Assembly (NCBI GenBank): GCA_043785265.1
Contig: JAYVXK010001173.1
Span: 1 to 10,005 of the forward strand
Reading direction: 5' to 3'
Source: Myxococcales bacterium
GTDB taxonomy: Bacteria > Myxococcota_A > Polyangia > Polyangiales > Polyangiaceae
Length of the DNA stretch: 10,005 bases
Made by a program: the position numbers and the translations under genes. The notes below the pieces were generated by a model. The model did not search any database and had not been told where the DNA came from. It was given only the letters and a program-made list of their open reading frames with translations. Shown piece after piece: positions 1 through 6,158 of this stretch (its first letter is position 1; the number at the start of each line of letters is the position of its first letter).

Positions 1-664
1 ACGGCAGTTGACCTGTCAACGCGTGATACATGCACGCGCCAACGGCATAGAGATCGCTTCGCGCATCGACGCGTGTACCCCGCGCTTGCTCCGGCGCCAT
101 GTACGCTGGCGTGCCCAACATCGCGCCGGCCTTCGTCAGCCGACCGGCTTCTTCTTGAAGCTGTGCAACGCCGAAGTCGAGCAGCTTGACCATCTCACCA
201 AGCGAAGGCACCTCGGTGAGAAACACATTGTCTGGCTTCACGTCGCGATGGATGATCCCGGCACGGTGCGCGGCGGCGAGACCATCCAGCATTTGCGAAG
301 TGATCGTCGCCAGGCGCGCGCAATCGATTCGTCCAGACCGCTCGATGAGTTGTCCCAGCGATTGCCCGTGCAAGTGCTCCATCACCAAGAACGCGGGCTC
401 TCCTTCGATGGCTTGAAAGTCGGTCACCTGTACGATGTTGGGATGACCAAGAGCCGCCGCGGCGCGTGCCTCGCGCTGGAATCGCTCGATTTGCATCGAG
501 TCGAATGACAGCGATCGATCGAGCACTTTGACAGCGACGCGTCGACCCAGATCGATCTGCGTCCCGTCGTAGACCGCGCCCATTCCACCCTGCCCGAGAA
601 GAGGTCCGAGCTTGTAGCGTCCACCGAGCGTATGACCCGTGAGCAACTGCGCTGAGAGAGTCAC
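1..664 (-). CDS. Hanks-type Ser/Thr protein kinase, N-terminal ~220 aa; the gene continues past the window start. Start codon uncertain (GTG at 664 or TTG at 646; no in-frame ATG before the G-loop).
   Basis: Reverse-strand translation was done by hand; this frame is not in the ORF track because it lacks an ATG and a stop. It gives [20 protein letters not shown] (glycine loop), VAVKVL (VAIK lysine), [11 protein letters not shown] (catalytic loop HRDxKxxN), LLDFG (DFG) and GTPAYMAPE (activation segment). The listed + ORF 8..508 is antisense to this. Confidence 0.8.
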
Positions 665-2770: not shown

Positions 2771-3148
2771 TCAGTCGAAGGTGACAGTGCCCGTGTAGGG
2801 ATTGCTCTTGAGACCACCTTGGTCGGTGAGCACAAACCCGTAGTCGAACGTCTTGCCTTTGTAGGCCGCCGCGAGTCCGACGCTCACCGTTTGAGTGAGC
2901 GCGTTCGCCTGTGTCGCGACATTGGTGGTCGTCGACTTGCCGTTCGCGGTGAAGGTGATCACCAGCAGCACCGCATAGTCATCGGCGTCGGAGTAGCTGT
3001 ACTTCACGGTCCACGTATAGCTGCCATCTGCCGACGCGGTCACGTGTGTAGGGGCGTCGAACGAGACCCATGTTGGCGGCACGGATCGCTGCGGGCTCGA
3101 ACATGAAAGGAGCAATACGGAGGACAAGACCAGGGCGCGCACGACCAT
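2771..3148 (-). CDS. Small secreted lipoprotein of unknown function, 125 aa, Thr/Ser/Tyr/Val-rich, probably beta-rich.
   Basis: Begins MVVRALVLSSVLLLSCSS: positive N-terminus, hydrophobic core and a lipobox-like LLSC (PROSITE lipobox pattern satisfied). The rest is T/S/Y/V/A-rich. Stop 4 nt upstream of the GH35 start suggests co-transcription. No family recognised. Confidence 0.55.
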   Translation of the reverse strand: MVVRALVLSSVLLLSCSSPQRSVPPTWVSFDAPTHVTASADGSYTWTVKYSYSDADDYAVLLVITFTANGKSTTTNVATQANALTQTVSVGLAAAYKGKTFDYGFVLTDQGGLKSNPYTGTVTFD

Positions 3149-3202
3149 CGGAGTCTACGCCGCTTTCAGCCATGTCGGGCGGCTCAATGCGCTGCTTTCG
3201 CG

Positions 3203-3271
3203 CCGTCCACCCGTCGCCGTCCGCCGTCCCCGTCCCCGTTCGCGTCCCCGTCCCCGCTCCCGTCCCCGCTC
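3203..3271 (-). repeat. Degenerate hexamer tandem array, G-rich on the minus strand: (GGGGAC/GGGAGC/GCGAAC/GGCGAC)n, ~11 units, in the divergent intergenic region between the lipoprotein and hemL.
   Basis: Plus strand reads ccgtcgccgtccgccgtccccgtccccgttcgcgtccccgtccccgctcccgtccccgct; its reverse complement is GGGGAC-type period-6 repeats. Same family as the arrays at 6017-6158 and 9478-9656. Confidence 0.75.
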
Positions 3272-3291: not shown

Positions 3292-4575
3292 ATGACAGCT
3301 CAGAAATCGCACGACCTCTTTGTGCGGGCGCAACGCGTGATTCCCGGTGGTGTGAACAGTCCGGTTCGCGCGTTTCGCGCAGTCGGCGGCGATCCGATTT
3401 TCATCGCGCACGCTGCAGGCGCGTACTTGCACGACGCAGACGGCACTCGATACACCGACTACGTCGGCTCCTGGGGGCCCATGATTCTTGGGCACGCGCA
3501 TCCAGATGTGGTGCGCGCAATCACCGACGCTGCTGCCCGTGGGACGAGCTACGGAGCGCCTACTGAACTCGAAGTGACGTTCGCCGAGAAAATTTGCCAG
3601 ATGTATCCGTCGATCGAAATGATGCGTGCAGTGTCGAGCGGCACTGAAGCGACCATGGCTGCGATTCGTGCGGCGCGCGGGTTTACGGGACGCGATGCGA
3701 TCGTGAAGTTCGAAGGTTGCTATCACGGGCACGCAGACTTCTTGCTCGTCAAGGCGGGCAGCGGCGCAGCCACCTTGGGAGTGCCGGACTCGGCGGGTGT
3801 GCCGGCAGCGGTCGCAGCCAACACAGCGACGCTTCACTACAATGACGTGCCCGCGCTCGAAGCGTTGTTTCGGGCGCGTGGCAAAGAGATCGCGGCTGTG
3901 ATCGTGGAGCCTGTCGTGGGCAACATGGGTTGCGTTCCACCCGAAAAAGGCTTCCTCGAGGCGATGGTTGCATTGTGCAAGCAATACGGAGCGGTCTCGA
4001 TTTTCGATGAAGTGATGACGGGATCGCGTGTGGCTCGCGGTGGCATGCAGTCACGTGCGGGCATCAACCCAGACATGACCTGTCTAGGGAAAATCATCGG
4101 TGGTGGATTGCCGCTCGCTGTTTATGGTGGCCGGCGCGACATCATGGAAAAGATCGCGCCTCTCGGTCCCGTCTATCAAGCCGGCACGCTCAGCGGAAAC
4201 CCAGTCGCGGTGAGCGCAGCGCTGGCCACCATTGCTCATCTCGATGACGCGCTCTATGCGCACCTCGAGGCGCTCGGAGCGCGACTCGAAGCTGGGATGA
4301 ACGCCTCGATCAAGAAGCACAACCTCGCAGCGTGCGTGCAGCGCGTCGGTTCGATGATCACACTCTTCTTCGCGAAGGGTCCTGTGCGCTCGTGGAACGA
4401 CGCGAAAGACGCCGACACCGCGCGCTTCGGCAAGTGGCACCGTGGGATGCGCGAAAGAGGCCAATATTGGCCTCCATCTCAGTTCGAAGCCGCGTTCATC
4501 AGCGGCGCGCACACGAACACGGACATCGACGCGACGATCCAAGCTTGCGACGAATCACTCGCGATCAATTCGTGA
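3292..4575 (+). CDS. hemL: Glutamate-1-semialdehyde 2,1-aminomutase (PLP-dependent class III aminotransferase), 427 aa.
   Basis: MTAQKSHDLFVRAQRVIPGGVNSPVRAF matches the HemL N-terminus. Class III aminotransferase blocks follow (GSWGPMILGHAHP, FDEVMTG, MTCLGKIIGGGLP with the PLP lysine). The track ORF starts at 3070, but 3070-3291 is a translation of the hexamer repeat (PVPVRVPVPAPVP). Start set at ATG 3292 from the homologue N-terminus and typical length. Confidence 0.9.
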   Translation: MTAQKSHDLFVRAQRVIPGGVNSPVRAFRAVGGDPIFIAHAAGAYLHDADGTRYTDYVGSWGPMILGHAHPDVVRAITDAAARGTSYGAPTELEVTFAEKICQMYPSIEMMRAVSSGTEATMAAIRAARGFTGRDAIVKFEGCYHGHADFLLVKAGSGAATLGVPDSAGVPAAVAANTATLHYNDVPALEALFRARGKEIAAVIVEPVVGNMGCVPPEKGFLEAMVALCKQYGAVSIFDEVMTGSRVARGGMQSRAGINPDMTCLGKIIGGGLPLAVYGGRRDIMEKIAPLGPVYQAGTLSGNPVAVSAALATIAHLDDALYAHLEALGARLEAGMNASIKKHNLAACVQRVGSMITLFFAKGPVRSWNDAKDADTARFGKWHRGMRERGQYWPPSQFEAAFISGAHTNTDIDATIQACDESLAINS

Positions 4576-5352: not shown

Positions 5353-6012
5353 ATGCCGCGCACTCGCCCACGCATTCGACGCACCCCCGAAGAAGCCCGA
5401 CGGGTGATCCTGGATGCCGCGCTCCGATTGTTTGCCGACGAAGGTCCCGACGCCGTGGGCTTGAAGGAAGTCGCGAAAGCCGCCGGCGTGAGCCACGCAC
5501 TGGTCACGCACTACTTCGGTACGTATGACGGCCTCGTGGAAGCCGCGTTCTCCGATCACACGCAGCGCATTCGTGCAGAAACAATTTCACGCATCGCAGA
5601 GATCACGAGCGGCGGACCGCGCGCCTGGATCGAACACGGCGCCAAGCAACTCGGCCATCCCCTCTACGGCAGACTCATGGCGTGGTCGCTGCTCACGAAC
5701 CGTGTCAATCAAGCTGATTTTTTTCCGCGGCGCGATCAGGGTTTTCGCAAGCTCGCCGATGTCATCGAGATGCGTCTCGCGTTCGAGAAAAAAGAGCGAT
5801 CACGCGACGACATCGAGTTCTTTCTGCTTCTCGTGCTCAGTTCGCTGATGGGTTACACCGTCGGCGGTCGCGCGCTTTGGGCCGGTCTCGGCAAAGACGC
5901 GACCGAGGAGCGCGACGCGTGGTTTCGGGAGAGACTCGCGACGGCGATCGAACAACTCTCGGGCCTAGGGCCGGAGCCGAAACCGAAACCGAAACGGAAA
6001 CGGAAAGCGTAG
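5353..6012 (+). CDS. TetR/AcrR-family transcriptional regulator, 219 aa, with an unusual lysine-rich C-terminal tail.
   Basis: N-terminal HTH EARRVILDAALRLFADEGPDAVGLKEVAKAAGVSHALVTHYFGTYDGL is typical TetR. It ends GLGPEPKPKPKRKRKA, encoded by (CCGAAA)3(CGGAAA)2 at 5975-6006, followed by the TAG at 6010-6012. Confidence 0.85.
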   Translation: MPRTRPRIRRTPEEARRVILDAALRLFADEGPDAVGLKEVAKAAGVSHALVTHYFGTYDGLVEAAFSDHTQRIRAETISRIAEITSGGPRAWIEHGAKQLGHPLYGRLMAWSLLTNRVNQADFFPRRDQGFRKLADVIEMRLAFEKKERSRDDIEFFLLLVLSSLMGYTVGGRALWAGLGKDATEERDAWFRERLATAIEQLSGLGPEPKPKPKRKRKA

Positions 6013-6158
6013 CCAACGGGGGACGGGGACGGGGACGGTGCGGCGAGGGCGACGGGTACGGGTGCGGGTGCGGCGACGGGGACGGGGACGTCTCTCCGCG
6101 TCCGTCTCCGTGTCCGTGTCCGTCTCCGTCCGTCTCCGTGTCCGTCTCCGGTGCGCGG
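6013..6158. terminator. Putative bidirectional factor-independent terminator, or cruciform, formed by the inverted G-rich arrays between convergent TetR and MVP.
   Basis: Long imperfect GC-rich inverted repeat sits immediately after both stop codons. There is no U-tract, so function is inferred. Confidence 0.3.
6017..6158. repeat. Composite inverted hexamer array. G-rich arm on the + strand (6017-6090, GGGGAC/GGGTAC/GGGTGC/GGCGAC units), ~6-nt spacer, then an arm that is G-rich on the - strand (6097-6158, GGAGAC/GGACAC units). It fills the entire gap between the TetR stop (6012) and the MVP stop (6159).
   Basis: Read directly: gggggacggggacggggacgg...ggcgacggggacggggacg tctctc cgcgtccgtctccgtgtccgtgtccgtctccgtccgtctccgtgtccgtctcc. 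The arms are imperfectly complementary (G:U wobbles in RNA). Many consecutive G-runs are present. Confidence 0.8.

Follow-up and report, generated by a model that had tools for sequence, protein, structure and literature searches.

Opposed imperfect G-rich hexanucleotide arrays fill the spacer between convergent TetR-family and MVP-like genes on a Myxococcales contig

The complete 10,005-nt contig JAYVXK010001173.1 of a Myxococcales metagenome-assembled genome (hereafter the window) carries two convergent genes, one for a TetR-family regulator and one for a protein similar to major vault protein (MVP), whose stop codons are separated by a spacer of 146 nt. This spacer was found to be a head-to-head pair of imperfect hexanucleotide microsatellites, designated B1 and B2. 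They belong to a G-rich (CGGRRA)n family which also fills two other spacers of the contig, and this assignment is well supported. Comparison with the closest syntenic relative likewise gives good support for the arrays being young and lineage-specific, at a gene junction that does not exist in that relative. RNA crossing both arrays is predicted to form a long hairpin, and this hairpin is the generic outcome of opposed family members, not a specially evolved structure. As to function, we tentatively favour, with rather less than half of our confidence, a generic role at transcript 3′ ends, in which the hairpin would serve as an exonuclease barrier and as an obstacle or pause site for RNA polymerase, with transcript release probably by Rho.

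The borders of the spacer are set by two Pfam-supported genes. The TetR-family gene occupies 5353-6012 on the + strand (TetR_N, E 8e-15) and ends with TAG at 6010-6012, the left border, while the MVP-like gene occupies 6159-8186 on the − strand (MVP_shoulder, Vault_3, and Vault_4, E 7e-30) and ends with TGA at 6159-6161, the right border. This gene context, together with Tandem Repeats Finder (TRF), bears out the central claim of the original prediction, that inverted G-rich arrays lie in the convergent TetR/MVP spacer. The spacer had been described as consisting entirely of such arrays; about 90% of it is indeed made up of two period-6 arrays, but positions 6151-6158 are not repeat. Two independent Logan assemblies from other sequencing runs, L001 and L002, carry the TetR-arrays-MVP junction without a single base difference, which rules out a chimeric assembly join. 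The array lengths are identical in all three assemblies, which may stem from one population.

TRF reported the first array at 6019-6090 (period 6, 12.2 copies, 80% matches, GGGGAC) and the second at 6095-6150 (period 6, 9.7 copies, 76% matches), that is, head-to-tail 6-nt copies far above chance, as in a hexanucleotide microsatellite. The units were parsed by splitting at every CpG. By this parsing, array B1 is an imperfect (CGGGGA)n array at 6017-6093 (+), which is G-rich on the TetR-sense strand and starts 5 nt past the TetR stop. It contains CGGGGA four times and CGGGGGA once, and the variants CGGGTG, CGGGTA, and CGG-CGA lie in mid-array. Array B2, at 6094-6150 (−), is an imperfect (CGGAGA/CGGACA)n array, with CGGAGA four times and CGGACA three times on its G-rich − strand, which read GTCTCC and GTGTCC on the + strand. 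The (GGGGAC)-type units predicted for the left array are thus present, but exact CGGGGA accounts for no more than about 5 of the 12 units in B1; similarly, the GTCTCC/GTGTCC units are found in B2, but they end at about 6150 and do not reach 6158. B1 and B2 have no unit in common, and the best Watson–Crick stretch between the two arms is 18 nt at 83%. The arms are therefore complementary only through G·U pairs.

The same family recurs elsewhere on the contig. Array A, a (CGGGGA)n array at 3201-3268 (−), lies in the divergent GH35/hemL spacer and ends 24 nt before the hemL start. Array C, at 9482-9651 (+), comprises about 28 units of CGGGGA, CGGGAA, and CGGGAG and extends from 5 nt past the APH stop to 45 nt before the next gene. 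Both were delimited by TRF, unit parsing, and motif count. When up to two mismatches were allowed, CGGGGACGGGGA gave 28 matches in the window versus 1.5 expected, and 26 of the 28 fell in arrays A, B1, and C. Arrays occupy three of the four contig spacers longer than 140 nt; none was found at the short or overlapping junctions kinase/GH35, hemL/Coq4, and Coq4/TetR. Arrays A, B1, and C show no conserved common flanks, and only the hexamer units are shared. Just past a stop codon, the G-rich strand is the sense strand in all three cases in the window. As a general rule this was ruled out, with about four cases for and five against in other taxa by a rough classification. We also observed that the G-rich strands of the arrays alternate along the contig, A (−), B1 (+), B2 (−), and C (+), pointing outward from the blocks hemL-Coq4-TetR and MVP-APH, a sample too small for statistics.

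The age of the arrays was assessed against L129 (ENA contig OFCD01000287), the closest syntenic relative, which was found by a metagenome scan with the TetR protein. HemL (85% identity), Coq4 (81%), TetR (75%), and APH (80%) are arranged in L129 in the order and orientation seen in the window. In L129, APH starts 51 nt past the TetR stop (4230-4282) with no MVP gene between them, and GH35 lies elsewhere. No comparable hexamer arrays were found in L129 upstream of hemL, past TetR, or past APH, indicating that the arrays of the window are young, with the rapid turnover expected of microsatellites. The sole period-6 repeat of L129 is a 23-nt mini-array (GACCGT/GCCCGT) at 142-164, in another convergent spacer. 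All three array-bearing spacers of the window are junctions that differ between the window and L129; a fourth novel junction, MVP/APH (8187-8439), has no array.

Homologs of the MVP-like protein numbered 764, mostly in Myxococcota-type metagenome-assembled genomes (MAGs; Labilithrix, Haliangiales, and 'Deltaproteobacteria'). Five MVP relatives (L003, L004, L005, L127, and L128; 67-72% identity, the nearest at 70-72%; about 80 kb in all) are not syntenic with the window and contain no such arrays. A GC-rich hairpin lies about 10-45 nt past the MVP stop in five of the six relatives examined, in several cases without a U-tract. A 3′ hairpin is therefore usual at this position, and the array pair takes its place in the window. 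The MVP homologs stood in a different neighbourhood in every relative examined, and to judge from these neighbourhoods the MVP-like gene appears to move around.

The transcripts of the spacer were folded with ViennaRNA and compared with shuffle controls. TetR-sense RNA is predicted to form a long hairpin at 6016-6152 (+), with 57 bp and a 4-nt loop near 6090-6093. For 6005-6170 the minimum free energy (MFE) was −106.2 kcal/mol (z −4.5), and none of 200 dinucleotide shuffles was as good; for 6013-6158 it was −99 kcal/mol, the 57 pairs being 37 G-C, 8 A-U, and 12 G·U. The latter fold was also better than shuffles within the arms (z −3.4) and shuffles of the unit order (z −2.6), with 2 of 300 as good in each set. 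The long, imperfect, G·U-containing stem proposed earlier is thus confirmed by prediction for this transcript. MVP-sense RNA gave an MFE of −66 to −70.5 kcal/mol with 47 pairs and no G·U (z −0.8 to −1.7), a weaker fold because each wobble pair turns into an A·C mismatch. The expectation that transcripts from both sides can fold therefore holds for the TetR side, while on the MVP side the fold is rich in mismatches and not better than shuffles. A cruciform, which had also been suggested, is not specially favoured: DNA-parameter folds gave −43 kcal/mol for the + strand and −37 kcal/mol for the − strand, neither better than shuffles (z −1.4 each), and Watson–Crick matching between the arms is limited to the stretch given above.

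Chimeric molecules were used to ask how specific the hairpin is to this pair. B1 joined to the unrelated array A folded at −113.6 kcal/mol, and the 81 nt at the end of array C, likewise fused to array A, at −130.6 kcal/mol, both better than the real B1/B2 pair, indicating that hairpin potential is generic to any two opposed arrays of the family. Within the real pair, the B1 variants GGGTAC and GGGTGC stand opposite GTGTCC units of B2, giving U·G wobbles in place of G·G clashes. Permutation of the unit order costs about 11 kcal/mol because these wobbles would give way to the clashes. The way in which the units face each other is weak evidence of fine-tuning and reflects few independent events.

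The dyad symmetry extends beyond the arrays and into the coding tails of both genes. An inverted-repeat search identified a perfect 12-nt inverted match, with the left arm ACCGAAACGGAA at 5988-5999 (+), inside the TetR tail and about 100 nt away from the dyad centre, and the right arm TTCCGTTTCGGT at 6192-6203 (+), about 104 nt from the centre, which encodes TETE of the MVP tail. When both sides were shuffled, an inverted match of at least 12 nt arose in 3 of 2000 trials; when shuffling was confined to the MVP side, none arose in 2000. Moreover, alignment of the TetR and MVP gene ends in their sense directions gave z 3.8, and the 12-nt arms form the outermost helix of the fold of 5970-6210 (−138.7 kcal/mol). 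The TetR tail PKPKPKRKRK is encoded by a hexamer repeat, (CCGAAA)3(CGGAAA)2, at 5977-6006 (+; TRF period 6, 5 copies, 95% matches). The TetR C-terminus reads ...PEPKPKPKRKRKA in the window versus ...PKDVKKTRKKRA in L129, which lacks the repeat, and the MVP C-terminus reads ...RPTETEVPRDKRRQPP in the window (tail-coding region 6159-6209) versus ...MTPKSKA in L127. Both lineage-specific low-complexity tails are partly encoded by CCGAAA-type hexamers on opposite strands. To judge from these alignments, the extended dyad fits an old inverted duplication or template switch, and it fits selection for a longer stem equally.

We considered how such a hairpin might act on the transcripts. According to the 3′-end reading that we tentatively favour, the opposed arrays would make any transcript crossing the spacer fold back on itself, so that TetR-sense RNA would carry a very stable, G·U-rich hairpin of 57 bp and MVP-sense RNA a mismatch-riddled but still strong one. 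Located at the 3′ end, the hairpin would block 3′-to-5′ exonucleases, and it would also slow or obstruct RNA polymerase, so that less transcription would run on into the neighbouring gene on its antisense strand. With no U-tract present, Rho is probably required for transcript release, and the C-rich antisense of B1 would offer it a rut-like stretch on the MVP transcript. A composition scan located this C-rich, G-poor MVP-sense stretch at 6016-6093 (−), with a C/G ratio of 2.88 in 78 nt. It lies at +66 to +143 of the MVP transcript and ranks in the top 1% of the window, matching the composition of rut sites (C-rich, G-poor, about 80 nt past the stop); it would be rut-like if unpaired, and it is predicted to be partly paired with B2. 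In the TetR transcript, the highest C/G ratio was only 1.33.

Several results weigh against this 3′-end role. The fold of the MVP-sense RNA does not exceed its shuffles. The arrays are conserved in no relative, and thus purifying selection cannot be shown; the sole other copies of the spacer, in L001 and L002, are identical and thus offer no variation for covariation analysis. No U-tract of 7-9 nt lies 3′ of the stem on either strand, the tail being GGUGCGCGGUCACGG on the + strand and GUUGGCUACGCUUUCC on the − strand (3 U in the first 8 nt). In vitro, mycobacterial RNA polymerase did not terminate at hairpins without a U-tract, even in the presence of NusA and NusG (PMC3993855), the sole direct biochemical test in a high-GC bacterium that was found in the literature. 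The other convergent pair of the contig, hemL (+) and Coq4 (−), overlaps by 11 nt at 4565-4575 and has no spacer, hairpin, or array, indicating that an intervening structure is no general need of convergent genes here.

Almost as likely as the generic 3′-end role is that the spacer is a neutral by-product, or a scar of rearrangement. On this reading, both the arrays and the 230-bp dyad (5977-6205) would be left from the event which placed MVP beside TetR, with no selected RNA role; fold-back or template-switch synthesis could have produced an inverted duplication, later altered by slippage and transitions. Such a scar would be in line with the location of arrays A, B, and C, which all sit at junctions differing from L129, while the two conserved junctions have no arrays. 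The entry of the dyad into both lineage-specific tails (the 12-nt match and the alignment at z 3.8) points the same way, as do the generic hairpin potential of any two arrays and their lack of conservation in relatives. However, four arrays are too few to give the link with breakpoints statistical weight, and the novel MVP/APH junction is without one. B1 and B2 share no common unit, so an inverted duplication would have to be old or was never exact. Moreover, the differences between the arms (G3·U4, U4·G3, and G5·U2) all keep the pairing of the + strand RNA, and the real unit order beats permuted orders (2 of 300 as good). These pairing-keeping differences hint at weak selection for an RNA stem.

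It is unlikely that the spacer is a self-sufficient bidirectional intrinsic terminator which works without a U-tract, the main idea of the original prediction. The position of the hairpin would suit a terminator: the GC-rich stem starts directly past both stops (4 nt past TetR and 7 nt past MVP), and GC-rich hairpins, several of them without a U-tract, follow MVP in the relatives. Also in its favour, a consensus terminator scan found no canonical site at 6000-6200 nor at any other gene end of the contig; the nine sites that it did find, versus 7.1 expected, are all within genes. However, neither a U-tract nor an A-tract adjoins the stem, and 57 bp in 137 nt with many bulges is far beyond the known compact stems of about 5-20 bp with loops of 3-8 nt. 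A bidirectional terminator would also have comparable hairpins and tracts on both sides, while the folds here differ (−99 versus −66 kcal/mol), the MVP-sense stem being rich in mismatches and not better than shuffles. The in vitro evidence cited above opposes termination of this kind as well.

A G-quadruplex (G4) element seems slightly less probable again. Here the DNA or RNA of B1 would form a G4 that stalls polymerase or protects the 3′ end, with switching between G4, hairpin, and duplex. A canonical motif was defined as at least four runs of G3+ with loops of 1-7 nt, or a G4Hunter score of at least 1.5. The sole canonical G3+ motif of the spacer, GGGCGACGGGTACGGGTGCGGG, was located at 6047-6068 (+) by regular expression and G4Hunter scan; scores reached 1.7-2.2 in this region, and the mean over B1 was 1.6. 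Across the window, all G4Hunter hits but one fall in arrays A, B1, and C, including a cluster of potential G-quadruplexes (pG4) at 9535-9619 in array C. In E. coli, intergenic G4/hairpin/duplex motifs lie near gene 3′ ends, and 6 of 16 in one group are located between convergent pairs (Kaplan et al., 2016; PMC5100583). B1 RNA folded alone was predicted to form a G4, but in the full spacer the hairpin won by a wide margin, since ViennaRNA with G4 energies switched on kept it at −99 kcal/mol with no G4 in the MFE structure. B2 has only GG runs on its own, MVP-sense strand (mean G4Hunter 0.38), is not G4-prone, and cannot form a three-tetrad G4. The G4-capable tail that had been proposed for each transcript is accordingly limited to the TetR side, a G4 gives no symmetric account of the pair, and the pG4 is not conserved in relatives.

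Two further explanations have little chance of being correct. It is very improbable that the G-rich arrays have no part in transcription and instead flag where rearranged blocks of the genome end, a reading based on the alternating, outward 5′-to-3′ orientation of the arrays, their positions at breakpoints, the head-to-head arrangement of B1 and B2, and the dyad reaching into the coding tails. If true, it would imply that a repair or recombination process of this Myxococcota lineage synthesises or lengthens G-rich hexamer tracts at the ends of DNA, or recombines the arrays as inverted-repeat substrates. Least probable of all is an artefact or unrecognised coding sequence, that is, a chimeric join at low-complexity DNA or translated tails of the GD/TG type: low-complexity repeats can mislead assemblers, and the hexamers are found as coding sequence for (GD)n and (TG/TE)n linkers in proteins of L047 and L013 (Myxococcota), but the junction is identical in two independent assemblies, both genes end at in-frame stops with lengths matching their homologs, and the open reading frames (ORFs) running through the arrays are antisense to MVP and do not look protein-like.

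The spacer was also compared with known systems. Bidirectional intrinsic terminators, described in E. coli by SEnd-seq and Term-seq work, use one hairpin to serve both strands between convergent genes. The spacer resembles them in lying between convergent stops, in the possibility of a hairpin in both transcripts, and in a presumed role against transcriptional interference; it differs in having no A- or U-tract, a microsatellite stem of about 57 bp, and strongly strand-asymmetric stability. With the proposed 'I-shaped' terminators without U-tracts of high-GC bacteria it shares the genomic setting and a GC-rich hairpin immediately past a gene. The terminator function of such hairpins is disputed, mycobacterial RNA polymerase having failed to terminate at them in vitro (PMC3993855), and they may mark processed or protected 3′ ends instead. 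The closest published concept is the E. coli G4/hairpin/duplex motif (PMC5100583). Like these switch motifs, the spacer is intergenic, 3′-proximal, and G-rich, and could adopt duplex, hairpin, or G4 forms; those motifs, however, are short, conserved, and dispersed, whereas the spacer consists of imperfect tandem arrays which are not conserved and have only one G4-capable arm. Bacterial simple sequence repeats and intergenic pG4 enrichment (PMC12563890) are similar in the period-6 head-to-tail arrangement, the lineage-specific, G-rich, and intergenic occurrence, and the use of the unit in coding linkers elsewhere. Classical contingency-locus repeats are perfect and variable in length, whereas the spacer arrays are imperfect, with 76-80% matches, and show no difference among three assemblies.

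Repeats of the REP/BIME/REPIN type are likewise intergenic, often 3′ of genes, and arranged as inverted, hairpin-forming pairs, but the arrays have no conserved palindromic unit of 20-40 nt and no common flanks, and no RAYT transposase is encoded in the window. A REP/REPIN assignment was ruled out, as the flanks of A, B1, and C differ and only hexamer units are common to them. Opposed G-rich hexamer arrays are also found at head-to-head fusion sites of telomere repeats, such as human 2q13. By structural analogy only, the G strands of B1 and B2 run 5′-to-3′ towards the junction as they do there; unlike at such sites, arrays A and C are unpaired, and the window offers no candidate enzyme. Addition of such repeats is not known from any bacterial system. 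An integron attC site was ruled out, with no R″/R′ core (RYYYAAC ... GTTRRRY) at the spacer ends by inspection and no integrase in the ORF and Pfam survey of the window, and a CRISPR-like reading was rejected. An Rfam 15 scan at gathering scores gave no match in the window and nothing relevant in related loci; relaxing the cutoff to E ≤ 1 over 5850-6350 brought up just two eukaryotic miRNA models, both below threshold. Exact-match protein look-ups gave no record for the APH protein starting at 8431 or for P0001. Literature searches on GGGGACGGGGAC and on hexanucleotide repeats in myxobacteria found nothing relevant.

Similar arrays occur in other taxa. A contig scan showed (GGGRRC)4 to be widespread among high-GC bacteria, with matches in at least Streptomyces, Micromonospora, Planctomycetota, and Myxococcota, many of them coding, the call of coding or non-coding being rough (gene calling based on GC content at third codon positions). 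The orientation of the arrays relative to the upstream gene was mixed across taxa, again by a rough classification. In L082, a delta-proteobacterial MAG, a second and independent inverted pair, (TCCCGT)5/(CGGGAR)9, lies past a stop codon and folds at −93.6 kcal/mol on one strand and −92.5 kcal/mol on the other; it was ruled out as a second strand-asymmetric case because both strands fold equally well. In L032, a Myxococcales MAG, a single long spacer ahead of a gene holds a (GTC)n triplet array at 3113-3160, directly past a stop codon, and about 230 nt beyond it a 165-nt non-coding (CGGGGA/CGGCGA) array at 3391-3555 together with a 13-nt repeat.

Two other observations were made during this analysis. 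At the left end of the contig, the − strand of 1-665 codes for the N-terminal portion of a Ser/Thr protein kinase, recognised by eye from its HRDVKPDN and GTPAYMAPE motifs, and the ORF listed at 8-508 (+) is an antisense shadow of this gene. In two MVP relatives, a 2.2-kb ORF-free region lies past the MVP-like gene (L127:2747-4920 and L003:12023-14300), the two copies sharing 69% DNA identity. Of their 39 gaps, only 6 have a length divisible by three, the mismatches show no codon periodicity, and Rfam gave no match. On the strand antisense to MVP, RNAalifold gave −800 kcal/mol versus −548 ± 12 in column shuffles, with 88 compensatory pairs versus 48 ± 5.5, and the region ends in a canonical hairpin and U-tract beside the MVP stop. 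The region is a candidate structured non-coding RNA of very large size, converging on bacterial MVP. It is missing from the window, L004, L005, L128, and L129. Two Logan short-read contigs, L157 and L158, which carry the MVP homolog P0005 and match L003 in the genes upstream of it, break off about 40 nt past the MVP stop, at the point where the ORF-free region starts in L003; this break may reflect a repeat or a change in coverage.

Taken together, the element is not a new kind of system, and nothing found points to a new mechanism. If the spacer is neutral, it is a cautionary case: opposed low-complexity arrays would give a hairpin of about −100 kcal/mol by composition alone, and therefore neither stability nor a z-score is evidence of function. 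If, on the other hand, the hairpin acts on transcripts, the locus would show 3′-end structures arising fast from microsatellite expansion at new gene junctions, in a lineage of high GC content where canonical terminators are seldom used, and it would bear on transcription punctuation in such bacteria.

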